Assembly: GCA_021108075.1 (NCBI GenBank)
Contig: JAIORP010000012.1
Coordinates: forward strand, 6,539 to 70,538
Length of the DNA: 64,000 nt
Source of the DNA: Candidatus Omnitrophota bacterium
GTDB lineage: Bacteria > Omnitrophota > Gorgyraeia > Zapsychrales > Zapsychraceae
Direction of reading: 5' to 3'
The translations under genes and the position numbers were made by a program. Below are positions 17,376-35,918 of this stretch, one piece after another. Under the pieces are notes generated by a model. That model searched no databases and was not told the origin of the DNA. It worked only from the letters and a program-made list of their open reading frames with translations. Numbering within the stretch: position 1 is the first letter of the stretch; the number at the start of each line of letters is the position of its first letter.

Positions 17376-17710
17376 GTTTTCCTCCAAAGAGAATGTCGGG
17401 ATTGTTTATCGCGACCCCATCAAGTATAGCTCCGCAACTCCAATGCCTGTGAAAGTGGGATGAGAGTTAAATCCAGAAACGAAGATTAGCGCCAATAGCG
17501 CTTGTAATAGTAAGTCCCCCGGGTGTGAACCCGTGGGAAGCTATTTTTCAGGCTCATTTTGCAGTAGAAAAGACTCTATTTTGATATATAATAATATATG
17601 TTGTATACTTATTTAGTTAAGTATTAATTTTCTTTATATTATGGCATTCATTGCAAGATGAGTTGCCATCCCTAATTCTACCATCGAATTTTTAACCGTT
17701 GATTATTTTT

Positions 17711-20700
17711 ATGCCGTCAAAATCTATGTCTTACAAATTGTTTTGCCTCTTTTTGATCCTCGCGCTCGGTGTTCATATGATCATGCCTGCCACGGGTTTT
17801 GCGCAAGGGATGATATCTTTGCCCATACCAGGTGAAATGGTGAGGGTCAGCCCGGTCTTTGATCCCATGATGATCCGGGGCGTGATGGTCAGTCCGGATA
17901 ACCCCTTTGAACTGAAATTTTTAATGGATAGCGGTGACGCGATCCTGGCTGATGAAGCCCTTAAGAAGGAGGGGCAGGGATTAATCAAGTATTTTTTGGC
18001 TACATTAACGACTCCGGATGAGGATCTGTGGGTTAATCTTTCTCCTTATGAAAACGACCGTATCATGGCCAATGAATTCGGTCAGACCGAAATGGGCCGG
18101 GATATGTTGGCCCAGGATTACTTGTTGAAGCAATTGACCGCCTCTTTAATGTATCCGGAAGAAGAACTGGGTAGACGGTTTTGGGAACGTGTTTACGAAG
18201 AAGCGTACAAACGCTTCCGCACGACGAATATTTTAGTCAACACGTTTAATAAGGTATGGATCATTCCTGAGTACGCGGATGTGTATGAAAAAGACGGTGT
18301 GGCGTATATTCTTGACTGCCGGCTAAAGGTTATGTTGGAGGAAGATTATATCGCCTCCCAGCAAGTGTTGGGTAATGCTGCTTGGGCCCGTAAGCTTGGC
18401 GTGGCTGACTTGACGGAAGAAGATAAAGCGAATTTGTTCGCCTCACAGAGCGATCCTTTAAAAGCCATCCTTAAGGAAATCATTGTTCCTGAAATTGAAC
18501 GGGAAGTCAATGAAGGACGAAATTTTGGACAGCTTCGTCAGATATTCTACTCGATGATTTTAGCGACATGGTACAAAGAGCGCCTGAAAAATTCCATCCT
18601 CAATCATGTCTACTCGAATCAAAAAAAAATAAACGGCATTGATGTCGAGGACAAAGACATTAAAGAAAAGATCTACCAACAGTATATCACCGCCTTTAAA
18701 CGTGGTGTTTACAATTACATTAAAGAGCAGTATGATCCGCAAAAAGGCGAGGTCATCCCACGCAAATATTTTTCCGGCGGGGCGACGTGGATCAATATCA
18801 AGGATGTGACCCGTTACCACAAAGAACTTCCATCAAATTTCGATAAGGTTCCCCGGTCCGATTTTGCCATGCTGACCAGGTTAGATGATTCCGCCCAAGC
18901 GGCGCCGCGCGCGATGGACGCGGCGATGCTCGACACCTCAGGCCGTCAAAGAGCCCGCCAGGATGCTTTTGAAAAGCTTGTCCGTGACCGTTTTGAGTTT
19001 GATAACGTGATCGCTTCTTTTAATGATTTGCTCAAGGGAGCTAATCTTAAAGTTTATCCATCCCGCGCGGATCTCTATCAGTATGAAGGCGGTCTGGATA
19101 CCGGAAGTTACTTCTTTACAAAATTAGTCGGGTATGGCCTCGACGCTCAGAGGAAATACATCGCGTTAAGGCGCTTGATTGAGCAGGATCAGTTTTTAGA
19201 TTTTATAAGTGGAGAGGCAACCTTTTCTCGTGGTGACCTATTGCGGATATTGAAAAATAAAGAATTGGACGATGAACTGGACCTGATATTAAAAGATCAA
19301 GACAGTTATGATGATTTTATTTCGATGTTAGCAGACCGGGACTATATGGATATTCTTTTCAGTCACACAGGGACCGCTGAGATTTATATTGAAAATAACA
19401 AGTTGGTTGCTCAATTACCCAATACTCAGCTCGTCGATGTACTGGGATTTATTTCTTTTTCCCCTGAGGATCGAAATATTGAGTTCCTCCTGTCCGAGAA
19501 TTCCATGGCCCAGTTCCTTTTTGATATCCGCCGACAAGTGCTGCCATTGTTAGTTGAGGCCGCGCAGGAATATGGATGGGGATTCCGCTCTCCGCTTGAA
19601 GTTGAGCTTTCGGATGCTGTCAGGCCAATCGCAAATGTGATTTCAAGAGTCCGGGAGCAGGAATTAGAACGGTTTTTAGGCCAGGATACGTTTAGCCGCC
19701 GGGTCGAAGACTTAGAACATGGGGCTTTTCAAAATTTAAAGGATTTGTTCCAGGAAAGGAAGCAGCAGGGGCAGCCGGTAATGATTGGCATCAGCGGTTT
19801 ACCCGGAGGCGGGAAAACGCAGAAAGATAAACGTGTCGCGGCAGCGATAGCAGAAGTTGTTAAGGAAGATATTGTGATCATCGACGAAGACCGGTTTATA
19901 AAACAGCGGGCGCCCGTGGACACCCGGGGGGAAGGATTGGGAGGGAAATTTGACTGGTCTGCGCATGATCAGAGCCTTAAGGACTTGCGGGAAGGCCGCT
20001 CCGTAATGGCACAGATGTATGATCCTGTGACGGGGGGGAATCCGATGTTGGCCCTCACGGAGGCCGGAAACATCATTATTTTGAATGGAAACAGGACGAT
20101 AACCATTGTCGCTGATAAAGACCAGAATCTTTTTGACTTGATCGAAGAAGAGCATCAACCCGGTCAACCAGCGCAAGTGATCAGGCATCATTTTAAGACG
20201 GAGAACTTGACGCAGAGCGGTCCGTTTACATCAGGTTCAACGGTCTATCAATTTAAAATAGAGAACGGAAAGTTAATGGTCGGATTTCAGGGGTATGATG
20301 TCTTACGATTGGAAGAACAGAACGCGCCCCGCAACATCTTGGCCATGACACAATATGAAATTGATTTAACACGTGAAGACCTCGTCGCGCGGATCCAACT
20401 GTCGGGAGAACATAAACATCTCGAAGCGCAAAGTGTTTTTCCCCTGAACGTCGTGTCTGACCGGATGGATGTGAACGCTGTGAGTCGTGCTATTCTCTTA
20501 AAGGAAGTCATCCCGACGGACAAACCGATTGTGTTTTCAGGAACGCATGCCTATACCCAGTATAAAGATAATAAGTTCGTGTCGAATGATCAGATCTTTG
20601 ATGTGAGTCTGTATTATCAGACGCCATGGATTGTGCGCTGGACGCGTGATTGGTTAAGGAGCCAAGAACGAGGCAAGCAAAGAGGGGAACAGCTCGGGAA

Positions 20701-23700
20701 TGCGGCACGTTTTTATGACCGTTTGAATGTGGAGGAAACGATTTCCTTACAGACAAAACCTCAGGTCGTTCGCGATATTAAAATTATGGGTGTCACGGAA
20801 GCTATCGCGTATTTGTTGCACGCGTCGCCTGAAAAATTATTTGTGCATGAAGCGTATCTTCGGCAATTAGGTCTGGACCTGAATACAATTCGTGAGTGGC
20901 AACGGGAATATCTTGTTAAGCCGGAGCTGCTGAGTCTTTTTAATGAATTTAGAGAGAAAACGGAATTTGTACGGACATATGACGGCCATGATGAGTATTC
21001 GATCGGAGATTTCATTTTCAACGTGAAGAGCGGACAGAGCGCGTTATCTCAGGCTGAGATTCTTCATCATGACCGGCTTCAGGACCGGTTAAGGGGGATT
21101 TGGGGCGGCAGCACGATTATTCATTTGGATCAGCTGGGTGATGTTGTTGTCGACGGGGATAAAAAAAGGTTCGGTTATGTTTCCGTCTGGAATAAAGGCG
21201 AGCTGGTCGGAGAACGTTTGAAGGCGCTGGCTCAAAGAACGGATCCAGACAGTTTGACTGAAGCGCAAATTCTGATCGATCAATTTGTAGAGCAAGAGCA
21301 GCAACTGCACCTGAGAGGGGTTGTCGATAAAAATCCTGATATTATGACGAATCGCCGGATTTTGCCGATGGATAATCAGATGAAAGTGATGGTCGCGAGT
21401 CCGGCCGCCCAGTTGACGATTTGGGAGAATGCGTTATCTGTGTACCAGTCCCGATATGCCTCACGCCGGGCGGATGAGAATATATATTTATCTCCTCAGA
21501 TTTTACAAAGCATTCCAGAGGCGTTCAGGCCCTATTATGAACAAAAAGTAACGGAACAATTGTTGCCTTCTGCCGGACAGACAAAAGAAGACGCTTTTCA
21601 GCAATTTTACAATAATGTCTTTGAACTCGCCTTACATGTCGCGGATCGATCTCCCTTCGGAGACCTGATAAAATTTGGTTTAGTCCGTAATGAACAGGCG
21701 CATTTGATTGTTGAGAATTTGAAGAATACAGACGTGGAACATCCGGCCCTATTTGAACGCCGACTGAATCATATCCGGTTTATTTTTACACGGGCCCTCA
21801 TCGATCAGACCCGTCGTGATTATTTTGATTACGTCAATACGTCAAAAGGAAATCCGCTGCTTGCCTGGACCATGCTTTTTGTTGATTCATACCCGGAAGT
21901 TTATAATAAATTTAATTTGCTCATTAAAATTTTTCTGAACGAATTGATGGAAAATGCGGGATTGTTACAGTCCTTCCCCTCGAATGAAGAACTCTGGCAG
22001 TACATTTCAGCACGGTATCAAGAGACTTATTCTGTTAGAGGGTTAGCGACTCCCGGGTTAAGTGCATATGTGCGGCGTTCTTTTGAATATTTTATCGATA
22101 TCGCCCGTCAAATGCCGTTAAGCTGGGACTTGATACAAGAACGGCCAGCGGTCACCGGTGATTTGGCCTCAGATCCATACGAGTTTTCCCTAACATCTTA
22201 TGCCAATGAAACGCAAGGGTATCCCGATATGATGGGGGTACAAGTTTTAGATGAGCGTGAGTTTGGTCGTCTCAGGACCTATATGGATCAACCGCGTAAA
22301 GCGGTCTTGACAGACCTCGACGGCACAGCAACACTCGTTGATCAGAAATCAGGTCGAGTTAGTGAAAGCGTAAAAGAATCGCATAAGGCCAATATTCAAC
22401 GCTTTGCTGAGCTGGTCACTGATGGCGTCTTAGTTGTTCCGACCACAAACCGCCGGGAGTCAAAAGCGGTTGCTTACGCTGAAGAAATTGATCAGGTCAT
22501 CCAGCAGACTCCCGGGTATCGGTATCGTCAAGATTCTAGGACGGGCGGATCGTTTTTATTGTTTTGGGCCTCTGGGATGAATGGCATGGATGTTGGTCAG
22601 AATAAATTATTAGATGATTTTCAGTTAAAATTTAATCCGCAACAACAGGAAGAGGTCGTTCAATCCTTGCTGAAGGATCAGGTTATCGCGTCACGCGCCA
22701 CAAGACATGTTGAGATCCTTGATGGAAAAATTAATGTTTATTATTCAGGTGGTACGCGCGTAAGCCGGGCAGGTTTTTTAGATGCTATCCGGGGTGTTTT
22801 AGATGGTTTGAATACCCTGGTCCGTCAAGACGGTTTTGCCCCAAAGGGCGAATATTCTTTGCTGCGGGTTGTCGACGGGGGAGAAAATGTCATCTCGATA
22901 CTGCCGCAGGACGCTAATAAGGCCCGGCCAAAGAATTATATTCAAAATCGTTATGCTATATCTGAAGATGAAACATTGATCCTTGTTGACCAACCGCAAC
23001 AAGGACGGGCGGACAATGACCTTGTCCGTTTGTCAGGTATTCATGTTGGGGATGATATCGATGATTTACCAGAAGGAGTTATCAGCACCAAGAAAGCAAT
23101 CGGCCTGGTTGGTCCGCAGGCGGTTCAATGGCTGCTAACAAACACAGAATTTTCTTCTCCTTTTATTGAAGAAGAAACCTTCCGCTCGATACTGGCAAAG
23201 AATATCCCACCGACACGGAATGTCGTCATTGAAAAGGTCGGAAACTTGCGTTTGGTGAGAACTCCCTGGCGCAAAAGACGTGTTAATCCGACAACCCCTT
23301 TTAGCGCGGTTGTTCTTCCCTTTGATCCTGGCCTTTTTAATTTTCGGAACGAAAACATTGATGAAAGCGATATCTTTTTCGAAGGCATTATCGAAGGGCA
23401 GGAAACAACGTTATTGTTGCAAAAGTCTCCCTTTGCCCCCGATCATTTTCTTGTAATTCCTGAGCGTGATCTTGAGCGTCCGCAGGTATTGCAGCCAAAG
23501 GACATCGCTTTTGGTGCCCGGTTTGTCCGTTCGCAAGCTTTGCCGCATTTGCGTTTGGGGTTTACAAGTTTAAAAGGCGGCGCATCTATTAATCAGCTGC
23601 ATATGCAGGCCTTCACGACGATCGAAGACCTTTCCGCGTTAGAATTGGTTCCTAAAAAAGAGGAGTACCGTATTCAAGGCGTCAGTGTGAATGTATTGGA

Positions 23701-26700
23701 AACAATGGAGGACTATCATTATAACGGCCTGATGTTCCATTCAGAGAACATTGAAGACCTTTCTGTTGTTGTTTATCGATACATCGAAATATTGAACCGG
23801 TTTGATATCCCCTATACCGTTAATTGGACCCAGGTCGGGGTGTATGTTATGCCGGTAAGAAGTTCCGTCGGGATACAAGGACGATTGGGTTTTTATGAAC
23901 ATATGGGTTTTGTTATTTCTAAAGATGTCAGCGAAAGCCGAGAGCAGGCTGTCGCAAAGTATGCTGATGAAATGCAATCAGCATCTCTGAACGATGCGGA
24001 CTTTATCCTAACGCATCAGTTTACCTTCTCGACCGAAGAGATTGAAGCTGCATCATTGAGGGAATTATCTTCCCGGTTAAATGAAGGAACGGACCGTCCG
24101 TCTGACGCGGCGATGTTGGGTGGCAGGGATGACAGGAATGAAGAGCGGCTTAATCTGGAGGCGTTAGAAAAGATAAATCTGCAAGCCTACGGGCCCGGGG
24201 GGCGCCATGGACTGATTGACCTGGAAAAATCTTACAATGATTCGCGTGTTTTTATGAGTTATATTTTCGGGTTAGCCGGGGCCGGGATGGTTGGTCTTCC
24301 GACAGCACTAATGACTCAGGACATCTATTCGTCCGCGACGGGGGCGCTCGTTGGTGCCGGGGTCGCGATCGCGACATATGTAAAATTATTTCCACAATCA
24401 AAATATAAAAATATTGAAGAGGGTATCCAGGCGTTGGAGAAAGCGCGTACTCAAGAGGAGATCCAGTCTGCGCGAGGTTTATTTATCGATGGAATGGCAG
24501 GCACAGATTCAGTATTGCTTCATCGTTTGGGCTTAACAGGTTTGGAAACATCGGAAAAATTATTTGCTAAAATGATGGGCGCAGAACAAACAGAGCTTGT
24601 TCTTCCTTCTGATATCCAACCCATCCAGGCTGATCAGATCAGGCAATTAGAAATAAATATGGGACTGGCTGGACTGGCTGATTTGTTAAAGATTGTTGTT
24701 CATGAAAAATTCGCGTACTTTTCCGTTGTTCCATCAATTCCGACCGATGAGCAACGGAAGTCATTAAGGGCCGCGATATCAGACCCTGATGTGATCAGGC
24801 GGCTTTTTAAAAACGTATCTGATGATAGCAATACGATAGAACGCCTGCAAGAAAGGGTATGGCACGGGATCTTTGATCTGTTGTACCGGCAGGATGGAGA
24901 CTCTATATTCTCTCCGGAGTATTTAGAGCTTTACAGGGATAATGAGATTTTTATGGAACAGGGGGTTTTGCGGGAGCTTGCCAATGATCAAGAACGCTCT
25001 CAGGAAGATTATCTGGTTGACGCGGTGAAATCAGAAATTAAAGCGGACAAACAGTATAAAATTCTTGTTTTCGCGACTGGCTCGGGAGCACTGATTAATA
25101 ATTTGTTGCAACAAATTTCAAATATTGGTGAGATCGTTGAATATGACCGTAGCGCTACTTCCAATGAAACGGCTGATCGCAAACGCAGAGAATTGTTGCC
25201 GCCCGATTTATATAATAAAGTTCGGCAGATTACAGCTGATGTTAGAGATTTTAAATCTGAGCTGAATGGCGAAGAGTTTGATTTTATTATTTCCACGGCA
25301 TCATTGCGCCTGATGAGTTCCGAAGCCCGGGAAAGCATATTAGAATTTTTGCAGGAAAAAGCAGGGTTGCGCAAGGGGGGATCGTTTATCTATATGGATA
25401 CCAGGGAGCATTCAGAAATCATGGGGCAGGCGGTCGACCAGATGCGGACGTCCGGTTTTAATGTGAGCGTTGATGATAAGTTTTTCGCGGGCCACAGAGA
25501 CGCGATGTTTTATATTTTTGTGCATCAATACCGAAAGAATCAAATCTTTAGAAATTTTATTGATCAGTTAATGAGCTTAAAGCGTAAAGATAATTTATAC
25601 AATTTTCTTTATGAGATGGCCGGTCACAGGAGAATCAAATTCGAATTATTAAAGGCGACGCAAACATCTGAGAGTTTGAGGAAAAAGAATTTTGAATCAA
25701 TGGTGAATCGATTTTCTGACGCCACAAAACAGATGTTTGGTTCTGTGTTTGAAGATGCACGGGTGACAGTCCAAAAGGGACCCAGTTCACGAATCACAAT
25801 CCGTTTATTTGAAAAGGATCCAGATGTTGATTATTTAGACAGCTATGATATCAGCGTCGATACCGCGCTGGGCCAGGTGTATGCGGTCACTCTTTATGAT
25901 GGGCGGAGTATCGGGAAAAACACTTTAATTGTTGGACGCGCGGTCTTGCAGGATCCAACAGTGGATAGAGTCATTCTGACGCAGCATGTGTTGTCTTCAA
26001 AATATGGATATGATGAAGCGTTAAAGGAATTGAAGTCCGTGTTATCTGAAATATTGCCTGAGGGGATGTTAAATTTTGATGAATCGGAAACATTGGATCG
26101 TTTAGCGACACATGCCGCGGGGTTAACAAAGAGTGATATGTCGGAGGCTATTAACGCCATTCCGGTCGATGCGGAAAATTACGAAGATATGATCATTGAA
26201 GCGTTTCGTTCATATTCTCGAACAGTCTATCCTTCACAAGAGCGTTTGCCTTTCCGGGGAGCGGCAAAGATTTTTCGAGAGAATGCCTCGATGGCGATGC
26301 GTTTGGCCGGCGAAGAGGGTTATTCATCAATTAGCGGACTCGTTTCTTTACCTGATGGTTTTCAAAATTTAGCGTTATATCAGAGGCTTGGTTTTAATCC
26401 GATAATCCCGGAAGGAAGAAGCGATTATTTTGGACAGGTGCAAGCAGCGTTAACAGATAAGAGCGCGGGCGCGACCTTAAAGGAAAAGGCCTGGTATTTG
26501 TCGCAACGTCTGGAGCAATTGATATTACTCGTTCAAAAAGATATTCCTGATCAAGACGCGGCGATGTTGGGCAAAATCAATCGTTATCAACTTAAAAATG
26601 GGGCAACGGTTTTAGGCCCGTTATCTGAGGACGCGTTTAATCAGATGGCAGGCGAAGACGCGTTTTTTCTTGTCAGAGATAAGGAAAAAGGAGTCTATGC

Positions 26701-29700
26701 TCAAAAGACAACCCCCGAGGAGCAGGGTTATAGTGTTGTTGCAACGGAATTTAGTGAGATCGAAACAATTTTTAAGGATGCCGGTGTGGATATGGTCACT
26801 CATATTTTGTCGACGTTATGGGAGAATCCAGATCGTGAAGTCGTCGTGTTAGCTGATGGAGTTGGCCGGGGAGTGGAATTGCAGGGACTTGTTGAAAAAT
26901 TAAAGAAAGAGGTAGAGGCTTTCGGCCTTGATATATCAAAAATCAAAATTTATGGTCTTTCAGACATGTATTTTCAGGACTGGCAGGACGCAGACCCGAT
27001 GATCAATTTTATTCTTGATGATCGAGAGAACTTGCCGGACTATTTCTCGAGAAGGCAAATTGACGTGATGATGAGTTATAAGGGCATTTCTCATATCGGT
27101 CAGCAAGCGGAATATATCAATCATATGAGAATGATGAAGCCGCACTTTAAATACAACGCCTTAATTGTCCATGATTTTTATTTTGGGAATTTAGACGCCG
27201 TTGAATCGATGCTGGAGCGGAATGGTTTTTCGGTTAAGAGGGAACGGTTGCCGGGTATGACGGAGTTATTTGTTCTGCGACCGGTCGATTTTAATAAAGA
27301 TGCGCCTGCCGATGTATCAGAAAACACGAATAGGGAGGTTAAAACGGTGCCGTATCAACAGGCGGAGTTTTTTGAACTCACGCCTGATTACAAACTAGCA
27401 GGAACATACACCACCCGAAAGGGAGAAGAATTCAATATTTATTTTAAAGATAATGATTTTGTGTTGATGAACGTTGAAGGGCAGTTTATCGGTAAGGTTG
27501 TATTTGATTTTACGGAAGAGGGTGTCGCGGAAATTGATTTAGTGCGCGTTTCAGAGTATGTTCAGGGGGAAGGATATCTGTATGATTTGATTGATGCTAT
27601 ATCTTTTTATTTAGGACAATTGGGAGCCGAAAGTATTGTCGTTACGGAAATTTATAATCCATTTTTGTCCTATGTTTTGACAAAAGAATATGGATTTCAT
27701 CCTGAGATTAAAGAGGGTGATGAACGCAAACAATTGATTATTGGTTCACGAGAGCCAGGTGAGAGACTGCCCGTTTATCTTTCCGGAGAAGGCGCTAAGA
27801 AAGTTTTCTCGCCGGGCTCAGGGTATGATGTTCTATTAGAAAAGTTAGATATCCTTGATACCCCTCCCGATGATGGCGTTGTCAGCTATGTGTTTGTTGA
27901 TTATGTTAAGGACGTTAATAACGCGCGATACCAACAGCAAATAAGTTCTGTCAAAAACAGGATGGCGATTGATGGAGAAATTCTTGAGCAAAGGAAGAAC
28001 GAATATCAAACAAAATTTCAGCGACGAGGAACAGACGACATGTCAGAAGATCACCGCGATCAAGCGATGTTGATAACCTATACGGAAAAAGAGTGGCAGC
28101 AAATAGACCAGACGTATCAAATTTTGCAGCAGTTGGCGCAGGTGGTTGATACTCAGATGGAACAGAGTGGTATGGTTGAAATTTTTGATGTCTTCCGTCA
28201 ATGGCTCAATCAAGGACCGCGGGATGCTTTGGCCCAAATCGAATTGATTGAGGACCCTCAGGAACAACAGGAAGCTTACCAGAAATTAAGCGCTGCCCTA
28301 TCACGTTTTGTTCATGAATTTGAGACAACATATGATCATGTATCGAAAAGATGGGGGCAGGAAATCGCGGGCGTTAACGGCCGGTCCTTTGTTCAATTTG
28401 ATACGGATGGGAAGGTCCTTTCTTATCCATGGTTTGATTTGACGTATGACCTGAATGACAAGTTGGATAAACTGGCCACCTTTATTCTTGGCTGGGGGAA
28501 GCTTTTGGTTACGGATGGCGCTGTTGCCAAAGATAATTTTTTGCTTTTGGTCAACAAATTGGAATCTACGTACCGCATATGGGATGGTTACCGGCAATAT
28601 TTGCGCCATGTTGCGGATCCGCTGTCAATTCAAGATAGTCAGATCGCGGATAATCAAGAAGAAAGAACACAGCCGCGTTTGGGTTATGATGAGTTTTTAT
28701 TGCCGTACCGCAATGCGTTATTAGCGCGCGATGCGGACCAGGATACTTTGGAGCAACCGCGTGAAGAATATGTTGCCCTGGTGGATGCGCAGGGGAATTT
28801 TTTGCGGGCTGTTCCACGTTCTGAGCGTAAAAATAAGGCGCCGGATGAATTTACTCAGGGTGCTGTTATTATTGTTGTCGATGAGGATGGGAATGTTTTG
28901 ATGCAGCAGCGATCAGAAGGGAAGATGGAAGGGCACGAAACCTTTGGCCCCATGGATTGGACCATCGGGGGGCATCGTTCTGATGAGGATGCCGACATTG
29001 AAGCCGCTGCTTTGCGCGAAGGCAATGAAGAGGCCGGGGGCATTATCAATTTTAAGAAATCAAATCTGGTGCAGATCGATCAGCGTCCTGTTAATCCGGA
29101 CACGGATGGCCGCTGGGTGCGCTCAACGTTCATTTATGTGGTCAGTGCAACAGAGAAGAACAATATTCAGGAACAGATGATCGAGGGCTGGCAAGGGAAT
29201 GACGAAGTTGACGGCTGGGAGTGGTGGGGGCAAGATGATTTTACAACAGAGGCAAAAACGAGCCAGAAATGGTCAACCGTGATTGATCTGTTAAGAGACA
29301 TTCCTGATTTTCCGGCGATGGTAGAAACGGCTGTTGTGGGTGTTACGCAGCGTCGCCGAGATAGCACGGTTCGAGACGGGGCAGCACTGACAACCTATAC
29401 GGAAAAAGAGTGGCAGCAAATCGACCGGACCTACCAGACGCTGCAGGAGATCGCCTTAAGCGTTCAGGGGAAATTGCAGGAAACAGGTATGACCACTCTC
29501 TTTCTACGCATCGACCAGTTCCTGGTCCAGGAGGACCCACGGCTGATGTTTGAACAATTACAAGACTTACCGAGCAAAGAGGCTCAAGATCGGGTTTATG
29601 CGGTAATAAACACGGCCATGCAGGGCTATGCCCTGAATATCAAAACCATGTATCAGGAAAACATATCAGAGATTGACGCTCAACTCGCCCGGATCAAAGG

Positions 29701-30313
29701 CCGATCCTTTGTTCAATTTAGCGCGGAGGGGGCATTGGAAGCATACTCTGCAGAGGAGTTGATCTATGACATCAAAGATAAGATAGGCAAAATAACGACT
29801 AATATTTTTTCCTGGTGGGATATGCTGTCATCAGACGGTGATCTCCCAAGGGAACAATTTTTGTTTATGCTGGATCAGTTTGAATATGCGAGTGAGGCAT
29901 TCCATCAGTACCGTTCTTATCTGGGACACATTCTTCAACCAATTCGTATTCTGGATGAAGATATCGTTGACAACCAAGAAGAACAAAGCCACCCACGGCA
30001 AAGCTATGATCAATTTTTACTGCCCTACCGTGATGCGTTGATCGCGCGTGATACCGCAGTCCAGGACGCTGCCATGCTGGGCAGAGAGCAAAGTGACAAT
30101 GTCGGTGGTATCGATCTTAATCCCGCCAATTTGAATCTGCGCATCAAGCGTGACGGGGATGGTCAGCCGTTGCCGTTTGATGCCCAACCGATCGATAGTA
30201 TTAACATTGAAGGACTGGTCCCTGTGATCATTAATGTTACACCGATCATAAACCTGCCGCTATTGCTTGGAGCGGCTGAGCCGGGTGAAGTCGATCAGGT
30301 CCTATCCCTTTAA
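17711..30313 (+). CDS. Giant (~4,200 aa) secreted or membrane-associated multidomain protein
   Basis: Uninterrupted 12.6-kb ORF with an N-terminal signal peptide. Domains by motif: PRK/uridine-kinase-like P-loop (GISGLPGGGKT...YDPVTG), HAD (LTDLDGTA...GDDIDD), HIT/GalT-like (HFLVIPERD, INQLHMQ), hydrophobic hairpin, class-I MTase-like (ILVFATGSGAL), GNAT-like (QGEGYLYDL), Nudix box (GGHRSDEDADIEAAALREGNEEAGG) and tandem ~230-aa repeats. The C-terminal ~75 aa are shared with the ORF at 47473. Confidence 0.8.
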   Translation: MPSKSMSYKLFCLFLILALGVHMIMPATGFAQGMISLPIPGEMVRVSPVFDPMMIRGVMVSPDNPFELKFLMDSGDAILADEALKKEGQGLIKYFLATLTTPDEDLWVNLSPYENDRIMANEFGQTEMGRDMLAQDYLLKQLTASLMYPEEELGRRFWERVYEEAYKRFRTTNILVNTFNKVWIIPEYADVYEKDGVAYILDCRLKVMLEEDYIASQQVLGNAAWARKLGVADLTEEDKANLFASQSDPLKAILKEIIVPEIEREVNEGRNFGQLRQIFYSMILATWYKERLKNSILNHVYSNQKKINGIDVEDKDIKEKIYQQYITAFKRGVYNYIKEQYDPQKGEVIPRKYFSGGATWINIKDVTRYHKELPSNFDKVPRSDFAMLTRLDDSAQAAPRAMDAAMLDTSGRQRARQDAFEKLVRDRFEFDNVIASFNDLLKGANLKVYPSRADLYQYEGGLDTGSYFFTKLVGYGLDAQRKYIALRRLIEQDQFLDFISGEATFSRGDLLRILKNKELDDELDLILKDQDSYDDFISMLADRDYMDILFSHTGTAEIYIENNKLVAQLPNTQLVDVLGFISFSPEDRNIEFLLSENSMAQFLFDIRRQVLPLLVEAAQEYGWGFRSPLEVELSDAVRPIANVISRVREQELERFLGQDTFSRRVEDLEHGAFQNLKDLFQERKQQGQPVMIGISGLPGGGKTQKDKRVAAAIAEVVKEDIVIIDEDRFIKQRAPVDTRGEGLGGKFDWSAHDQSLKDLREGRSVMAQMYDPVTGGNPMLALTEAGNIIILNGNRTITIVADKDQNLFDLIEEEHQPGQPAQVIRHHFKTENLTQSGPFTSGSTVYQFKIENGKLMVGFQGYDVLRLEEQNAPRNILAMTQYEIDLTREDLVARIQLSGEHKHLEAQSVFPLNVVSDRMDVNAVSRAILLKEVIPTDKPIVFSGTHAYTQYKDNKFVSNDQIFDVSLYYQTPWIVRWTRDWLRSQERGKQRGEQLGNAARFYDRLNVEETISLQTKPQVVRDIKIMGVTEAIAYLLHASPEKLFVHEAYLRQLGLDLNTIREWQREYLVKPELLSLFNEFREKTEFVRTYDGHDEYSIGDFIFNVKSGQSALSQAEILHHDRLQDRLRGIWGGSTIIHLDQLGDVVVDGDKKRFGYVSVWNKGELVGERLKALAQRTDPDSLTEAQILIDQFVEQEQQLHLRGVVDKNPDIMTNRRILPMDNQMKVMVASPAAQLTIWENALSVYQSRYASRRADENIYLSPQILQSIPEAFRPYYEQKVTEQLLPSAGQTKEDAFQQFYNNVFELALHVADRSPFGDLIKFGLVRNEQAHLIVENLKNTDVEHPALFERRLNHIRFIFTRALIDQTRRDYFDYVNTSKGNPLLAWTMLFVDSYPEVYNKFNLLIKIFLNELMENAGLLQSFPSNEELWQYISARYQETYSVRGLATPGLSAYVRRSFEYFIDIARQMPLSWDLIQERPAVTGDLASDPYEFSLTSYANETQGYPDMMGVQVLDEREFGRLRTYMDQPRKAVLTDLDGTATLVDQKSGRVSESVKESHKANIQRFAELVTDGVLVVPTTNRRESKAVAYAEEIDQVIQQTPGYRYRQDSRTGGSFLLFWASGMNGMDVGQNKLLDDFQLKFNPQQQEEVVQSLLKDQVIASRATRHVEILDGKINVYYSGGTRVSRAGFLDAIRGVLDGLNTLVRQDGFAPKGEYSLLRVVDGGENVISILPQDANKARPKNYIQNRYAISEDETLILVDQPQQGRADNDLVRLSGIHVGDDIDDLPEGVISTKKAIGLVGPQAVQWLLTNTEFSSPFIEEETFRSILAKNIPPTRNVVIEKVGNLRLVRTPWRKRRVNPTTPFSAVVLPFDPGLFNFRNENIDESDIFFEGIIEGQETTLLLQKSPFAPDHFLVIPERDLERPQVLQPKDIAFGARFVRSQALPHLRLGFTSLKGGASINQLHMQAFTTIEDLSALELVPKKEEYRIQGVSVNVLETMEDYHYNGLMFHSENIEDLSVVVYRYIEILNRFDIPYTVNWTQVGVYVMPVRSSVGIQGRLGFYEHMGFVISKDVSESREQAVAKYADEMQSASLNDADFILTHQFTFSTEEIEAASLRELSSRLNEGTDRPSDAAMLGGRDDRNEERLNLEALEKINLQAYGPGGRHGLIDLEKSYNDSRVFMSYIFGLAGAGMVGLPTALMTQDIYSSATGALVGAGVAIATYVKLFPQSKYKNIEEGIQALEKARTQEEIQSARGLFIDGMAGTDSVLLHRLGLTGLETSEKLFAKMMGAEQTELVLPSDIQPIQADQIRQLEINMGLAGLADLLKIVVHEKFAYFSVVPSIPTDEQRKSLRAAISDPDVIRRLFKNVSDDSNTIERLQERVWHGIFDLLYRQDGDSIFSPEYLELYRDNEIFMEQGVLRELANDQERSQEDYLVDAVKSEIKADKQYKILVFATGSGALINNLLQQISNIGEIVEYDRSATSNETADRKRRELLPPDLYNKVRQITADVRDFKSELNGEEFDFIISTASLRLMSSEARESILEFLQEKAGLRKGGSFIYMDTREHSEIMGQAVDQMRTSGFNVSVDDKFFAGHRDAMFYIFVHQYRKNQIFRNFIDQLMSLKRKDNLYNFLYEMAGHRRIKFELLKATQTSESLRKKNFESMVNRFSDATKQMFGSVFEDARVTVQKGPSSRITIRLFEKDPDVDYLDSYDISVDTALGQVYAVTLYDGRSIGKNTLIVGRAVLQDPTVDRVILTQHVLSSKYGYDEALKELKSVLSEILPEGMLNFDESETLDRLATHAAGLTKSDMSEAINAIPVDAENYEDMIIEAFRSYSRTVYPSQERLPFRGAAKIFRENASMAMRLAGEEGYSSISGLVSLPDGFQNLALYQRLGFNPIIPEGRSDYFGQVQAALTDKSAGATLKEKAWYLSQRLEQLILLVQKDIPDQDAAMLGKINRYQLKNGATVLGPLSEDAFNQMAGEDAFFLVRDKEKGVYAQKTTPEEQGYSVVATEFSEIETIFKDAGVDMVTHILSTLWENPDREVVVLADGVGRGVELQGLVEKLKKEVEAFGLDISKIKIYGLSDMYFQDWQDADPMINFILDDRENLPDYFSRRQIDVMMSYKGISHIGQQAEYINHMRMMKPHFKYNALIVHDFYFGNLDAVESMLERNGFSVKRERLPGMTELFVLRPVDFNKDAPADVSENTNREVKTVPYQQAEFFELTPDYKLAGTYTTRKGEEFNIYFKDNDFVLMNVEGQFIGKVVFDFTEEGVAEIDLVRVSEYVQGEGYLYDLIDAISFYLGQLGAESIVVTEIYNPFLSYVLTKEYGFHPEIKEGDERKQLIIGSREPGERLPVYLSGEGAKKVFSPGSGYDVLLEKLDILDTPPDDGVVSYVFVDYVKDVNNARYQQQISSVKNRMAIDGEILEQRKNEYQTKFQRRGTDDMSEDHRDQAMLITYTEKEWQQIDQTYQILQQLAQVVDTQMEQSGMVEIFDVFRQWLNQGPRDALAQIELIEDPQEQQEAYQKLSAALSRFVHEFETTYDHVSKRWGQEIAGVNGRSFVQFDTDGKVLSYPWFDLTYDLNDKLDKLATFILGWGKLLVTDGAVAKDNFLLLVNKLESTYRIWDGYRQYLRHVADPLSIQDSQIADNQEERTQPRLGYDEFLLPYRNALLARDADQDTLEQPREEYVALVDAQGNFLRAVPRSERKNKAPDEFTQGAVIIVVDEDGNVLMQQRSEGKMEGHETFGPMDWTIGGHRSDEDADIEAAALREGNEEAGGIINFKKSNLVQIDQRPVNPDTDGRWVRSTFIYVVSATEKNNIQEQMIEGWQGNDEVDGWEWWGQDDFTTEAKTSQKWSTVIDLLRDIPDFPAMVETAVVGVTQRRRDSTVRDGAALTTYTEKEWQQIDRTYQTLQEIALSVQGKLQETGMTTLFLRIDQFLVQEDPRLMFEQLQDLPSKEAQDRVYAVINTAMQGYALNIKTMYQENISEIDAQLARIKGRSFVQFSAEGALEAYSAEELIYDIKDKIGKITTNIFSWWDMLSSDGDLPREQFLFMLDQFEYASEAFHQYRSYLGHILQPIRILDEDIVDNQEEQSHPRQSYDQFLLPYRDALIARDTAVQDAAMLGREQSDNVGGIDLNPANLNLRIKRDGDGQPLPFDAQPIDSINIEGLVPVIINVTPIINLPLLLGAAEPGEVDQVLSL

Positions 30314-30557: not shown

Positions 30558-30624
30558 ATGATCCTACGGGTGTGTGCACCCAAAGAATTAAATCCGTTTA
30601 ATTTCAATATCAAAGGTGAAGTCT

Positions 30625-32442
30625 ATGAGTGTAGAATTCAAGCAGACGATCAAAGAAATCTGTGAAGCCTGTGGTAACGACCGTTCCCTGATGATGGACG
30701 TTGTTATTGCGACGCAAAAGCGTTTTGGCTGTGTTTCCAATGAGGCGATGGATCTTATTGCTGAGAATATGAACGCCCATCGCGTCGAAGTAGAAGGCGT
30801 TGTTTCCTTCTATTCCTTCCTGTCGCCTGACCCCAAAGGTCAAGTCGTCATCCGGTTATGTAATGATGTTGTTGATCAAATGCAAGGCGTTCAAGCCGTT
30901 GCCGAGGCCTTCAAAAAAGAACTCGGCATTGATTTCGGCCAAACCACTCCGGACGGAAAAATTACCCTCGAATGGACTCCCTGTATCGGGATGTGCGATC
31001 AAGCCCCGGCCGCTCTCATCAATGATATGGTTTTTACCTATCTCTCCACAGATAAAGTCCGTGAAATTACGGATGAATTAAAAAAACATGGGGACCCGGA
31101 ACAGATTCCTATTCGCTATGGTGACGGGAATAACGCCCATGATCTGGTCAAATCCATGGTGAATAATGGACTGAGAAAAAAAGGCGCGGTTATCTTTGGC
31201 CAGCATGAAGCCGAAAAGGGTGTAAAGAATGCGCTGTCTATGAGTGCTGTTGAGGTCATTCGGGAAGTGAAGAACGCCCGTTTACGCGGTCGGGGAGGAG
31301 CCGGTTTTCCAACAGGGATGAAATGGGAATTCACCCGCGCGGCTGATGGCGATAAAAAGTATATCCTCTGTAATGCGGACGAAGGGGAGCCGGGCACATT
31401 TAAAGACCGTGTTATCCTCACGGAACGCGCGGATTTGCTTTTTGAAGGTATGACAATCGGCGGTTACGCGGTCGGATCAGATGAAGGAATTTTGTATTTG
31501 AGAGCTGAATATGCCTACTTACGCGCTTTCCTGGAAAATGTTTTGAAGGAAAGACGAGATAGGGGTCTTTTAGGAAAGAACGCTTGTGGTAAAGACGGTT
31601 TTGATTTTGACATCCGCATTCAGATGGGTGCGGGGGCCTATATATGCGGGGAAGAAACAGCCTTGATCAGTTCCTGTGAAGGCCTTAGAGGTGATCCGAA
31701 GAACCGGCCGCCTTTTCCCGCGCAAAAAGGTTATAAGGAGTGTCCGACATCGGTGAATAATGTTGAAACGTTCTGTGCTGTCGCCCGTATTTTGGATAAA
31801 GGGGCGGCCTGGTTTTCTGAAGTCGGTTCTCAGGGAAGCCCGAGCACGAAGTTGCTCAGTGTGTCCGGTGACTGCACGAATCCCGGCGTTTATGAATTTC
31901 CATTCGGGATGAGGGTCGATGATTTATTAAAAAAAGTTGGGGCGCAGGATGTCCAGGCTGTTTTGATTGGTGGTCCGTCTGGACAGCTGATCGGTTCAGC
32001 TGATTTTGAGAGAACGATTTGTTACGACGATTTGGCCACGGGCGGTTCGGTTATCGTTTTTAATTCCAAACGGAATATTCTTGAGATCGTTGGCCAGTAT
32101 ATGGACTTTTTCGTCGAAGAAAGTTGTGGATACTGCACGCCTTGCCGGGTGGGTAATGTTTTGCTCAGGAACGGTATTGAGAAAATTATTCATGGGCAGG
32201 GGGAAAAAGCAGACCTCGATTACCTTCAGGAATTGGGGGAAACCGTTAAATTGGCCAGCCGTTGTGGATTGGGGCAGACATCACCGAACCCTGTCTTAAC
32301 AAGCCTGAAAAATTTTAGAGCTGTTTACGAAGCCGTTTTGATTGAACCAACTGACGGACAGCAACCTTCGTTTGATATTAAAGCTGCCTTAAGCGTTTCA
32401 GAAGACTTAACAGGTCGTAAATCTGAGATATATAAAGATTAA
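30625..32442 (+). CDS. hoxF: NAD(P)-linked [NiFe]-hydrogenase diaphorase subunit HoxF (NuoE-NuoF fusion)
   Basis: N-terminal NuoE-like 2Fe-2S motifs (CNDVVDQ...CIGMCDQAPAALIND), then GRGGAGFPTGMKWEF, LCNADEGEPGTFKDR, EESCGYCTPCRVGN; AAAGGTGA RBS before ATG 30625. Confidence 0.88.
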   Translation: MSVEFKQTIKEICEACGNDRSLMMDVVIATQKRFGCVSNEAMDLIAENMNAHRVEVEGVVSFYSFLSPDPKGQVVIRLCNDVVDQMQGVQAVAEAFKKELGIDFGQTTPDGKITLEWTPCIGMCDQAPAALINDMVFTYLSTDKVREITDELKKHGDPEQIPIRYGDGNNAHDLVKSMVNNGLRKKGAVIFGQHEAEKGVKNALSMSAVEVIREVKNARLRGRGGAGFPTGMKWEFTRAADGDKKYILCNADEGEPGTFKDRVILTERADLLFEGMTIGGYAVGSDEGILYLRAEYAYLRAFLENVLKERRDRGLLGKNACGKDGFDFDIRIQMGAGAYICGEETALISSCEGLRGDPKNRPPFPAQKGYKECPTSVNNVETFCAVARILDKGAAWFSEVGSQGSPSTKLLSVSGDCTNPGVYEFPFGMRVDDLLKKVGAQDVQAVLIGGPSGQLIGSADFERTICYDDLATGGSVIVFNSKRNILEIVGQYMDFFVEESCGYCTPCRVGNVLLRNGIEKIIHGQGEKADLDYLQELGETVKLASRCGLGQTSPNPVLTSLKNFRAVYEAVLIEPTDGQQPSFDIKAALSVSEDLTGRKSEIYKD

Positions 32443-32467
32443 ATCATTGATAACATAAGGACGATTT

Positions 32468-33187
32468 ATGAGTGAAAAAACGATAACATTTACTATTGAT
32501 GGTGTTGAAGTCAAGGGGGCACCCGGTCAAACTATTCTTGATGCGGCTGATGCCGCGGGTATTTATATTCCCCGTCTGTGTCACTTCAAAGGCCTGAATC
32601 CGCACGGAAGTTGCCGCGTGTGTACCGTCATTGTGAACGGCCGGCCGCAAGCCGCCTGCACGCAACCCATCGCCGAAGGAACGACAGTTGAAAATGATAC
32701 GGAAGATATAAAGAAACACCGCAGCAACATCGTTGATATGATGTTTGTGGAGGGGAATCATTTTTGCATGTTCTGTGAAAAGAGCGGCAATTGTGAACTG
32801 CAGGCCCTTGCCTATCGTTTAGGTATCTGTGCCCCGAAATATCCGTTTCAATTCCCTGACTGCACGCTCGACGCGTCTCATCCGGATATCTTTATTGACC
32901 GCAATCGTTGTATATTATGTGGCCGCTGTGTTCAGGCGTCGAAAGATCTTGATGGGAAGTGTGTTTTTGAATTTGTCGGACGCGGCGCGGAAAAGAAAAT
33001 TGCTGTTAACGCCGAGGCGAAGTTATCTGACACGAATGTTGATGTGACGGATAGAGCGGTTAATATCTGTCCGGTTGGTGCCATTTTGAAGAAGCGTGAA
33101 GGCTTTAAAATTCCTATTGGGGAACGGATGTATGATGCTCAACCGATTGGTTCTGACATAGAGTCTGATACCAAATCCATTAAGTAA
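32468..33187 (+). CDS. hoxU: Hydrogenase diaphorase Fe-S subunit HoxU
   Basis: 2Fe-2S N-terminal domain (CHFKGLNPHGSCRVC), HFCMFCEKSGNCELQ and CILCGRCVQAS cluster motifs; ~239 aa. Confidence 0.82.
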   Translation: MSEKTITFTIDGVEVKGAPGQTILDAADAAGIYIPRLCHFKGLNPHGSCRVCTVIVNGRPQAACTQPIAEGTTVENDTEDIKKHRSNIVDMMFVEGNHFCMFCEKSGNCELQALAYRLGICAPKYPFQFPDCTLDASHPDIFIDRNRCILCGRCVQASKDLDGKCVFEFVGRGAEKKIAVNAEAKLSDTNVDVTDRAVNICPVGAILKKREGFKIPIGERMYDAQPIGSDIESDTKSIK

Positions 33188-33308
33188 TTGTTCTATTTTA
33201 ATTCTGATATTTTTGCCTTAGAGTCGAGGAAATCAGAACCGGTTTTGGTAATGATACCAATGATTGAATTTGGTCTCGTTATTCGTACTATTATTTAATG
33301 GAATGGGT
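33168..33308 (-). repeat. MITE-like element, copy c (reverse orientation, composite); left TIR overlaps the last codons and stop of hoxU
   Basis: GATACCAAATCCATTAAGTAATTGTTCTATTTTAATTCTGATATTTTTGCCTTAGAGTCGAG...ATTATTTAATGGAATGGGTCT matches the reverse complement of copy b. An extra partial TIR pair sits at 33250..33280. Confidence 0.65.
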
Positions 33309-33354
33309 CTAAATAACAATTTATATTAATTTATTTGGGAAAAGGTAAAGAATT

Positions 33355-33900
33355 ATGGAAAAACCAAAAATTGCTACTGCTTCGCTCGCGGGTTGTTTTG
33401 GCTGTCATATGTCTTTATTGGATATTGATGACCGCATCCTGAAACTTTTTGAGCTCGTTCAATTTGATAAATCCCCTATTGATGATATTAAGAAGTTTAC
33501 GGGCCAGTGCGCTATAGGCCTGATTGAGGGGGGATGTTGCAATGAAGAAAATGTTCATAACCTGCAGAATTTTCGTAAGCATTGTGGCATCCTGATCTCT
33601 GTCGGTGACTGCGCGATCAATGGCGGGATTCCAGCGATGCGCAATAACATTCCTTTAAAAGAATGCTTTGACGAGGCCTACAGGGATGGACCTTCGGTTT
33701 ATAATCCTGAAGGTATTATTCCGAATGACAAAGAAATCCCTCTTCTGTTAGATAAGGTTTATCCTTGCCATCATGTGGTTAAAGTTGATTATTATTTGCC
33801 AGGTTGTCCACCGCCTGCTGATACACTGTGGGAAGCGCTTGTGGCCTTGTTAAGCAATAAGCCGCTTGATTTACCTTATGAGTTAATAAAGTATGATTAA
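33355..33900 (+). CDS. hoxY: [NiFe]-hydrogenase small subunit HoxY
   Basis: CFGCHMS proximal-cluster cysteines, GGCCNEE, LPGCPP; ~181 aa as in bidirectional hydrogenase small subunits. Confidence 0.8.
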   Translation: MEKPKIATASLAGCFGCHMSLLDIDDRILKLFELVQFDKSPIDDIKKFTGQCAIGLIEGGCCNEENVHNLQNFRKHCGILISVGDCAINGGIPAMRNNIPLKECFDEAYRDGPSVYNPEGIIPNDKEIPLLLDKVYPCHHVVKVDYYLPGCPPPADTLWEALVALLSNKPLDLPYELIKYD

Positions 33901-33923
33901 TTTTTTAATGTGGAGATAAAGCC

Positions 33924-35366
33924 GTGAGCGATCAAAATTTAAAAAGAGTTATCATTGAGCCCGTCACTCGTGTTGAGGGGCATGGCAAAGTGTCGATCCT
34001 TTTGGATCAAGATAACAAAGTTAAACAGGCTCGGCTGCATATTGTCGAGTTCCGGGGCTTTGAACGTTTTATTCAAGGCCGACCTTATTGGGAAGTTCCC
34101 GTCCTGGTTCAACGTTTATGCGGTATCTGTCCGGTGAGTCATCATCTGGCGGCCGCTAAGGCCATGGACTGGATTGTGGGCGGAGAGAATCTGACTCCCA
34201 CCGCCGAGAAGATGCGCCGTTTGATGCATTACGGTCAGACGTTTCAATCCCATGCCTTACATTTTTTCCATCTCTGTTCACCTGATCTATTGTTTGGTTT
34301 TGACGCTGATCCATCCATCCGCAACGTGATCGGTGTCGCCCGGAAATATCCTGATTTGGCTGTGCAAGGGGTGATGATGCGCAAATATGGTCAGGAAATC
34401 ATTAAAGCCACCGCAGGGAAAAAGATCCATGGCACGGGCGCGATCCCCGGCGGGGTCAATAAGAATTTGTCCATTGAAGAACGGGATGTCTTTCTGAAAG
34501 ATATTGACCAGATGCTGGAATGGGGCAGAGGCGCTTTAAAAATCGCCAGAGATTACACGATTGAAAATTTGGATAAGGTGAAGGATTTTGGATCCTTTGA
34601 GTCGAACCATGCCGGTCTGGTCCGCAAAGATGGCTGCCTTGATTTGTATGACGGTTATTTGCGGGCTGTTGACTCCCAGGGCAATCGGATATTGGATGAC
34701 ATGGACCCTCAAAAATATACCGAGTTTATTCAAGAAGGTGTGAAGTCCTGGACATACATGAAATTCCCATTCTTGAAATCGATTGGGCCTGAAGATGGAT
34801 GGTATCGTGTCGGTCCGTTATCGCGTATCAATGTGTGTGATTTCATTGACACACCGGAAGCCGAAGCCGCCCGTAAAGAGTTTAAGGCCATTACAGATGA
34901 TAAACCGAATCATATCACGATGGCGTATCATTGGACGCGCATGATTGAGGTCCTGCACTCGATCGAAAAAATTAATGAATTGTTGCACGACACTGACCTG
35001 CAGGGGACTGATCTGGTTGTTAAAGGCCAGAGAAGAGAAGAGGCGGCCTCGATCCTTGAAGCGCCACGCGGATCCCTGTTCCATCATTATAAGGTCGATG
35101 AAAATGATCAAGTTGTGATGGCGAACCTGATTGTCTCGACGACAAATAACAATGAACCTATGAACCGCGCGGTGACAAAGGTCGCGGAAGATTATCTCAG
35201 CGGTCAGGCCGAGATCACGGAAGGTTTATTGAATCATATTGAAGTGGCTATCCGCGCCTATGATCCGTGTTTGTCTTGTGCGACGCATGCGATGGGTAAG
35301 ATGCCTTTGATTGTGAGCCTGTTTGATCATGAGGGTCAGTTGCTTGATAAGAAAGTTAAGGAATGA
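33924..35366 (+). CDS. hoxH: [NiFe]-hydrogenase large subunit HoxH
   Basis: N-terminal RVEGHG...RLCGICPVSHHLA (L1 Ni-binding) and C-terminal DPCLSCATHAMG (L2); 480 aa. Confidence 0.9.
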   Translation: MSDQNLKRVIIEPVTRVEGHGKVSILLDQDNKVKQARLHIVEFRGFERFIQGRPYWEVPVLVQRLCGICPVSHHLAAAKAMDWIVGGENLTPTAEKMRRLMHYGQTFQSHALHFFHLCSPDLLFGFDADPSIRNVIGVARKYPDLAVQGVMMRKYGQEIIKATAGKKIHGTGAIPGGVNKNLSIEERDVFLKDIDQMLEWGRGALKIARDYTIENLDKVKDFGSFESNHAGLVRKDGCLDLYDGYLRAVDSQGNRILDDMDPQKYTEFIQEGVKSWTYMKFPFLKSIGPEDGWYRVGPLSRINVCDFIDTPEAEAARKEFKAITDDKPNHITMAYHWTRMIEVLHSIEKINELLHDTDLQGTDLVVKGQRREEAASILEAPRGSLFHHYKVDENDQVVMANLIVSTTNNNEPMNRAVTKVAEDYLSGQAEITEGLLNHIEVAIRAYDPCLSCATHAMGKMPLIVSLFDHEGQLLDKKVKE

Positions 35367-35842
35367 TACCTGCTGAACCAAGGATTCTTTTGATCGGGTA
35401 TGGTAATCCCGGACGTTTGGATGATGGTTTGGGCCCGGCCGTGGCAGCCGCCGTCGAGAAGTTGGCCTTGCCGAACGTGACCATTGAGTCTGATTATCAA
35501 CTGACGGTAGAAGATGCTTCCCAGATCGCCGAGCACGATATTGTTATTTTTTGTGATGCCGCTGTTTCCGGGGCGGAACCATTTGATTTTTTTGAAATAG
35601 CACCTAAAAAGGATGATATTTCGTTCAGTACTCACAGCATTGATCCGAGCGCTGTTTTAGGTTTAGCCTGTACGTTATTTCAGGCAAAAACAAAGGCGTA
35701 CGTCCTGGCCATTCGCGGTTATGATTTTAACGAGTTTGGTGAGAAGCTGTCGGATAAAGCGCAAAATAATTTATTAGATGCTTTTAAATTTTTAGAGAAG
35801 CGCCTTAAAACCAGGGATTTTTCTCAGGTAAATAAAAGATGA
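35363..35842 (+). CDS. hoxW: Hydrogenase maturation endopeptidase (HoxW/HycI family)
   Basis: LLIGYGNPGRLDDGLGPAVAAAV motif; ~159 aa; start overlaps the hoxH stop (ATGA). Confidence 0.8.
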   Translation: MIPAEPRILLIGYGNPGRLDDGLGPAVAAAVEKLALPNVTIESDYQLTVEDASQIAEHDIVIFCDAAVSGAEPFDFFEIAPKKDDISFSTHSIDPSAVLGLACTLFQAKTKAYVLAIRGYDFNEFGEKLSDKAQNNLLDAFKFLEKRLKTRDFSQVNKR

Positions 35843-35918
35843 TGCGACGTTGACGCTGCTTTGTCCGCGTTATCAAAAAGAACGTAACCAACGAACCCGG
35901 AACGGTAAGGAGAGTAAA

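Follow-up and report, generated by a model that had tools for sequence, protein, structure and literature searches.

Two long open reading frames (ORFs) on contig JAIORP010000012.1 of a Candidatus Omnitrophota bacterium (assembly GCA_021108075.1) repeatedly carry the short peptide D-x-A-M-L, which marks the joints between the enzyme blocks of the proteins they encode; marks of this kind are found again in thousands of related proteins of the phylum. The window referred to below is the whole stretch of 64,000 nucleotides (nt) that was analysed (contig positions 6,539 to 70,538); coordinates are window positions, and all features of the two ORFs lie on the forward strand. The first, hereafter the giant ORF (17699-30313), encodes 4204 amino acids (aa) and is identical to the database protein P0336 from a 119-kb metagenomic contig (NODE_16_length_118899, ENA ERZ26872899). 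The second, the GGDEF protein (47473-51309), has 1278 aa. Both are members of a large, previously undescribed family of Omnitrophota modular polyproteins.

Terminal modules and cassettes of the two proteins

ORF and domain scans divide the giant ORF into a signal peptide, an N-terminal module (N-module), four cassettes and a C-terminal module (C-module). A hydrophobic Sec-type signal ending GFA↓QG stands ahead of the N-module (17741-18787, aa 15-363), which is followed by a doublet of the motif detected in a six-frame scan: DFAML at aa 388 (18860-18874) and DAAML at aa 407 (18917-18931), the latter at the start of cassette 1. This cassette (18932-24103) spans ~1730 aa and several domains without an internal motif, and contains a weak P-loop kinase-like match (aa ~687-800), a HAD-like DxDGT signature recognized by eye and a GDPGP1/HIT-like part. 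After DAAML at aa 2136 (24104-24118, six-frame scan) comes cassette 2 (24119-26554), with an S-adenosylmethionine (SAM) methyltransferase (aa 2450-2583) and a weakly hydrophobic, possibly membrane-spanning stretch (about aa 2190-2231). A further DAAML from the six-frame scan (aa 2953, 26555-26569) precedes cassette 3 (26570-28057), where a weak GNAT-like match was obtained (aa 3249-3335). DQAML at aa 3454 (28058-28072), the left edge of homology with the syntenic locus L083, opens cassette 4 (28073-30064), which consists of a helical domain, a NUDIX domain (aa 3720-3850) and a duplicated helical domain, and is 64% identical to protein P0338, encoded at L083. DAAML at aa 4123 (30065-30079) then leads to the C-module (30104-30310; GGIDLNP...PVIINVTP...LLLG plus a tail). 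Cassette 4 is internally duplicated: its helical domain (aa 3454-~3690) has a second copy (aa 3894-4122) beyond the NUDIX domain, with a decayed motif, DGAALT, whose DGAAL (aa 3893, 29375-29389) sits at the duplication boundary and is deleted in the L083 orthologue.

The GGDEF protein is simpler, with a signal peptide, an N-module, one cassette holding two GGDEF domains, and a C-module (51103-51306). Its motifs are DLAML at aa 365 (48565-48579), directly after the N-module, and DQAML at aa 1197 (51061-51075). The N-modules of the two proteins (aa ~15-363) are 52% identical and their C-modules, corresponding to the last ~70 aa, 56%. A motif doublet is frequent after the N-module, with copies 14-75 residues apart (18860-18931 in the window; aa 366/404 at locus L058, 357/409 at L046 and 381/395 at L009), and its spacer often contains a β-strand-like V-x-V-x-L-x-E element, as judged by eye. 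Past the C-module, the extreme C-terminus often shows an acidic stretch and ends in ...(S/L)-L-(N) or ...Q-L, which may be a further terminal signal; the two window proteins end in ...QVLSL (30290-30310) and ...LAQL (51286-51306), and many relatives in ...SSLN.

Both ORFs are 46-59% identical to other family members in the N-module, whose signature (WVNLSPYE, LAQDYxLKQLTAS, FNKxWIxP and RKYFSGG) they share behind the Sec-type signal, and both carry the GGIDLNP...PVIINxTP...LLG C-module within ~110 aa of their end. A search with the N-module returned 899 proteins; among the 120 matches listed, all those named to a taxon except two belong to Candidatus Omnitrophica/Omnitrophota. At least 575 N-module genes occur in genomes of GTDB. 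The C-module profile gathered 6,570 clusters at 50% identity, with proteins of up to 5,808 aa. This module stands at the C-terminus in 150 of the 150 matches listed, and terminates 55 of 60 complete N-module proteins. Neither module has a match in Pfam or NCBIfam, and the family defined here is absent from both databases. Its layout is a Sec-type signal, an N-module of ~340 aa, one to more than ten variable cassettes and an extended C-module of ~60 aa. Most of the cassettes are enzymes and signalling domains of cytoplasmic type. Judged from its sequence, the N-terminus of the family resembles a Sec signal that would be cleaved, and A-x-A↓Q is conserved in it.

The N-module of the GGDEF-protein paralogue was modelled by AlphaFold2 (AF2) with a predicted local distance difference test (pLDDT) score of 85 and a predicted template modelling (pTM) score of 0.80; it is ordered up to RKYFSGG, after which pLDDT falls below 50 where the motif sits. 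Searching the PDB for this fold gave no match. For the C-module, AF2 gave an extended chain with no secondary structure (pLDDT 72, pTM 0.23), a model suggesting that the module probably needs a partner to fold. At one related locus (L001, 9551-10243), a response-regulator ORF beside a sensor kinase reaches an in-frame stop followed by ...NSAMLGEKGGIDL..., which is the motif plus a C-module. The C-module is called there as an 80-aa gene starting at the motif Met, without an N-module, and could represent a split gene, a pseudogene or read-through.

The motif at the joints between cassettes

Six-frame translation of the whole window yielded eight matches to D-x-A-M-L, all of them within the two ORFs (D codons at 18860, 18917, 24104, 26555, 28058 and 30065 in the giant ORF, and at 48565 and 51061 in the GGDEF protein). 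From composition, 0.069 matches are expected in their 5,482 residues (Poisson P=1e-14), and none of 1,000 shuffles reached more than two. The remaining window ORFs of at least 100 aa, some 17 thousand residues, contain D-x-A-M once and D-x-A-M-L not at all. A first-pass annotation of this DNA, made from the sequence alone, had named seven such sites. All are real and lie 1-5 nt from where it put them, including a variant at ~29379 (D at 29375), which proves to be the degenerate DGAALT within the internal duplication. The list nevertheless overlooked DFAMLT (18860) and DLAMLT (48565), both directly after the shared N-module. The same annotation had placed the final motif 8-10 residues ahead of the shared C-terminal module, and the distance to GGIDL is indeed 8 residues in the giant ORF and 9 in the GGDEF protein. 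It had also suggested that the motif, placed between predicted domains, lies in linkers, which agrees with our results: no site falls inside a Pfam domain in a scan of both ORFs, the sites are the joints of independently exchangeable blocks, and pLDDT drops under 50 once the N-module ends.

Comparison with relatives shows what happens at these joints. Locus L083 is the syntenic counterpart of the giant ORF, with the same downstream NuoEF and hydrogenase genes, and the two have only the last cassette in common (helical, NUDIX, helical). The alignment begins at the D of the motif at window aa 3454; upstream of it, L083 has a different cassette, B12/radical SAM, encoded in other reading frames. 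L083 also holds an extra cassette of ~250 aa between two copies of DQDAAML, at a place where the window has one copy. Cassette 3 recurs at 53% identity in P0383, the sole relative with this cassette from the database search, and homology starts one residue before the motif D; in P0383 the cassette begins at DQAMM and the C-module comes immediately after it. Among the fetched loci, homologues of the window cassettes were found for the NUDIX part alone. In other family members, the motif stands 6-35 aa upstream of the Pfam domain starts for REC, GDPD and PRTase-CE. Because homology to relatives starts exactly at the motif, cassettes are exchanged there, and the motif marks points of cassette gain, loss and exchange; it thereby shows how relatives trade cassettes.

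The peptide itself varies across the family. At the same positions, homologues hold one of three forms, D-x-A-M-Φ, D-x-A-(V/A/L)-Φ or (A/S)-S-P-(I/V/L), directly after the N-module, 5-35 residues ahead of the C-module and repeatedly in between, in numbers 10-35 times the expectation from composition. The long members carry many copies: 11 at locus L060 (3,535 aa), 11 at L058, 17 in protein P0306, and 9-10 of the S-S-P form at L009 and L017. In genomes of the D type, D-x-A-M occurs 1.87 times per 1,000 aa in family ORFs versus 0.40 in neighbouring ORFs, and almost all neighbouring ORFs with at least two copies are further family members. The motif is specific to the family. Its extended consensus is [TSGA]-D-x-A-M-[LVTIM]-[ATGSV]-[ED], beyond which the flanks are unconserved; the x position is Ala in just 21% of family sites.

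The D and S forms are mutually exclusive within a protein, with 62 proteins D-only, 43 S-only and three mixed (Fisher P=2e-4), and the form follows the genome. N-module paralogues of one genome (53-74% identity) are as divergent as N-modules between genomes, and no N-module alignment column separates D-type from S-type proteins (maximum 0.33 of 0.94 bits). D-x-A-M-L is this genome's version of a punctuation peptide that comes after the N-module and stands ahead of most cassettes and of the C-module. We considered the N-module as the protease or reader of the motif and rejected it, as no alignment column tracks the motif form. Since the form is genome-wide and is not tracked by the N-module, the reader is therefore expected to be a separate factor.

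The first-pass annotation had stressed conservation of the motif at the nucleotide level, which the data do not support as the main signal, as synonymous codons vary and the flanks are unrelated. The DNA string that it described as shared by several sites, GACGCGGCGATGTTGGG, is exact at 24104 and 26555 but only at those two; the site at 18917 shares the first 12 nt and the others use other codons. The codons for the Asp, Ala and Leu of the motif vary in the window and in four related genomes, most 12-mers are unique, and 24 distinct 12-mers were counted among 29 sites within one genome. Likewise, the three motif sites of L083 have three different DNA strings. Synonymous codons vary while the amino acids are conserved, and therefore selection acts on the motif at the level of the peptide. 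Third codon positions near the motif ATG have a G/C fraction of 0.63, 0.79 (Ala codon) and 0.70 (next codon), versus 0.47 in the background and in both flanks (124 family sites). This skew beside the ATG gives GCS-ATG-STG (for example at 24104-24118), and the flanking codons are at background.

These data also bear on whether the motif could be a recombination scar, a by-product of cassette joining through microhomology or a site-specific junction that serves no function in the protein. The points of cassette gain and loss coincide exactly with the motif, GACGCGGCGATG is common to three window sites and a 17-mer to two, and the G/C skew around the ATG would also suit such an origin. Yet amino acids are kept while synonymous codons vary both within and between genomes (the 12-mers and the strings of L083 given above), the flanks are unrelated, and homologous recombination needs longer identity than these shared strings provide. 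Furthermore, a neutral scar would be expected to degenerate in the way that the DGAALT copy has. We regard a scar as most improbable. A DNA repeat or recombination site was similarly rejected as the identity of the element, given exact strings at only two or three sites, unrelated flanks and varying synonymous codons.

Possible reading of the motif and its genomic setting

We favor, although tentatively, proteolytic separation of the cassettes at the motif as the best explanation of these sequence patterns. Proteolytic maturation of the giant precursor, raised as a possibility in the first-pass annotation, is plausible. The motif would be recognized by a distinct factor encoded in the genome, most probably an endoprotease, which would separate the cassettes with a cut probably near the Met, since this Met resembles the first residue of the next cassette; once freed, the pieces could function or be targeted individually. 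The motif resembles a recognition site because it is compact, lies in a disordered linker, occurs once per joint, has a genome-specific form and is under selection as a peptide. Several of these properties would equally be expected of an uncleaved docking or hinge motif, kept in the full-length protein and bound, once per cassette, by a chaperone, by a secretion or anchoring component, or by the protein's own N- or C-module. A short site in a disordered linker with unconserved flanks would serve this purpose, a genome-wide form suits any reader that is a separate factor, and the extended and probably partner-dependent C-module makes contacts between peptide and partner plausible in this family; moreover, no protease was found in either protein or as a conserved neighbour. 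Such a linker, however, would leave unexplained both the need for a docking site at most joints, including that of the C-module, and the behaviour of the Met as residue 1, with Sec and Tat signals and domain starts right after it. We therefore consider an uncleaved linker unlikely.

The position of the Met is indeed suggestive. By eye, it (or the corresponding I, V or L) falls on the first residue of the next domain; a REC example is S-S-P-I-NKILLVDD. Sec-like segments follow the motif at 6 of 166 sites, versus ~1% of control positions, and twin-arginine translocation (Tat)-like signals are 9.8-fold enriched within 25 aa after it (P=6e-4), for example DQAMMGRRDFLKAMG in P0383. A Tat signal is useful only at a free N-terminus. 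Canonical Tat signal peptides are seen mid-protein, directly after the motif, in P0383 (aa 82-110), at L054 (aa 435-470) and at L035 (aa ~410-445).

A free N-terminus could also arise without proteolysis, if the Met of D-x-A-M initiated translation of each cassette from one long mRNA. This Met matches by eye the expected first residue of REC and GDPD when compared with typical free-standing proteins, the Sec- and Tat-like signals begin at it, and ORFs predicted by gene callers in L001 and L083 begin at the motif or close to it. However, a Shine-Dalgarno-like sequence precedes one of the eight motif ATGs, compared with 11 of 20 starts of ordinary genes in the window, and the context of the ATG is G/C-rich. 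In addition, an ATG is missing from the S-S-P-[IVL] and D-x-A-[VL] forms, whose fourth codon is not biased towards start codons. Internal initiation thus appears very unlikely.

Several points weigh against proteolytic separation. No protease domain was matched in the giant or the GGDEF protein in Pfam or NCBIfam, with much of the protein unannotated, and no protease is conserved beside family genes in 79 related loci with 10 kb flanks. Sec and Tat signals after the motif were seen in a small number of cases. A few proteins mix the forms of the motif, and some genomes show none of the three. Co-evolution with a single protease could hardly bring about a switch of form over dozens of sites, and whole-chain Sec export, if driven by the N-terminal signal, would be difficult to reconcile with cytoplasmic cleavage and internal Tat signals. 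Finally, cassette 1, with its 1,730 aa and several domains, has no internal motif, so that some domain joints go unmarked; what the mark delimits is the cassette rather than each domain.

The first-pass annotation had asked whether the adjacent CPBP protease, or another protease, cleaves DAAML peptides, and a CPBP (Rce1-like) intramembrane protease gene with a TPR part (44615-45937) does lie about 1.5 kb upstream of the gene for the GGDEF protein. Its presence beside family genes is not conserved, as the 79 related loci contain one weak match to it, which covers its C-terminal TPR-containing part only. The genes that do recur as neighbours in these loci are limited to additional family genes, REC proteins and sensor kinases. 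The gene for the giant ORF, for its part, is 14 kb away inside a hydrogenase cluster. A role of this protease in cleaving the sites is thus barely credible.

The giant gene is wedged in a cluster of FeFe-hydrogenase, NuoEF-like, NiFe-hydrogenase and Hyp maturation genes (9977-13578 and 30616-41506). At L083 (5246-10318) and L085 (9896-17076), the same downstream NuoEF/NiFe-hydrogenase genes stand beside a family gene with different cassettes. Elsewhere in the window, a CRISPR array (2041-5420) comprises 47 copies of a 37-nt repeat matching Rfam CRISPR-DR7, with adjacent ORFs at 45-968 and 1262-1867. The stretch 46001-48000, upstream of the GGDEF family gene, has 35% GC (window mean ~44%), and a minus-strand ORF within it (46318-46923) has no Pfam match.

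If the cassettes are indeed separated, this would explain how GTP-, SAM- and nucleotide-dependent enzymes, as well as units with Tat or Sec signals of their own, come to lie behind a single N-terminal Sec signal. A broader idea, which we find rather doubtful, is that this is a phylum-wide polyprotein mode of the Omnitrophota, in which complete proteins placed between common N- and C-modules are separated at genome-specific punctuation by a dedicated factor. One ORF would then give many independently targeted enzymes, and new cassettes would be slotted in at the punctuation. Such a mode would parallel, in cells, the processing of viral polyproteins, and would answer whether long and giant Omnitrophota proteins act as one chain or many.

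Comparison with known systems

Long Omnitrophota proteins of a "multi-enzyme" class combine a signal peptide with methyltransferase, NUDIX, HIT, REC, radical SAM and kinase domains, according to two preprints (bioRxiv 10.64898/2026.06.07.730766; giant genes, 10.1101/2023.11.21.568195). The giant ORF resembles this class, coming from the same phylum and bringing together NUDIX, methyltransferase, GDPGP1/HIT-like and kinase-like domains behind one signal, although the window proteins (1.3 and 4.2 thousand residues) fall below the size cut-offs of both preprints. The cleavage points of Omnitrophota giant proteins are stated to be unknown (10.1101/2023.11.21.568195), and this is said in the literature searched to block structural as well as functional dissection. 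A look-up of terms in both preprints returned no joint motif, defined cleavage site, or conserved N- or C-terminal module. A full-text search of the literature on Omnitrophota giant proteins and polyproteins likewise found no description of the motif or the modules, and one on bacterial polyproteins in general found nothing relevant. With the joint motif, candidate cut sites can be named exactly, and these proteins can be divided by rule into units for structure prediction.

Viral polyproteins are similar in that one ORF encodes several complete proteins separated by short sites, with a lineage-specific consensus and variable flanks. The window proteins differ in being cellular and in having no known protease domain in the ORF, and their cleavage is putative only. 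In the LapA/LapG system, an N-terminal module is followed by a short Ala-Ala cleavage site, a long passenger and a C-terminal signal. The motif described here also comes close after the N-module and contains Ala-Ala in some copies. However, no site of the type (T/P/A)AA(G/V) is present, TAAG and PAAG being missing, Ala at the x position is confined to the minority of family sites noted above, the sites recur, and there are no features of type I secretion; nor was a LapG-like match found among 20 window ORFs scanned against Pfam. The C-module does not correspond to the C-terminal domain of type IX secretion, with no Por_Secre_tail/CTD match in Pfam or NCBIfam and no β-sandwich in the low-confidence AF2 model. 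Sortase and exosortase signals do not fit either: there is no LPXTG or PEP, the motif recurs internally, and the tail of the C-module is acidic, proline-rich and not predicted as a helix.

Polymorphic toxins offer a closer parallel. In these, recombination breakpoints coincide with a short conserved peptide (VENN in CdiA, PxxxxDPxGL in Rhs) at which the exchangeable part is joined to the constant one. A short conserved peptide at a joint where exchange breakpoints map is also what we find. Unlike in CdiA and Rhs, each protein holds many copies of the motif, and there is no conservation of its DNA. Moreover, VENN and DPxGL are absent, and there is no immunity gene downstream, where the next gene encodes a NuoEF-like protein and the genes are of NuoEF/hydrogenase type.

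In working principle, the MARTX toxins of Vibrio and relatives are the closest analogue. Their conserved arms flank strain-specific enzyme/effector cassettes that are separated at short inter-domain sites with a Leu at the cleavage position, and that are shuffled between strains. The Omnitrophota family differs in having no RTX/HemolysinCabind match in Pfam or NCBIfam, no GGxGxD and no glycine-rich repeats, and in having no internal cysteine protease domain (Peptidase_C80; no protease-family match in either protein). A Sec-type N-terminal signal replaces type I secretion, the two terminal modules bear no relation to the MARTX arms, and the motif is a defined 5-6-mer with genome-specific forms. 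The likeness lies in variable cassettes set between conserved N- and C-terminal regions, as seen both in the family architecture and in the exchange of cassettes.

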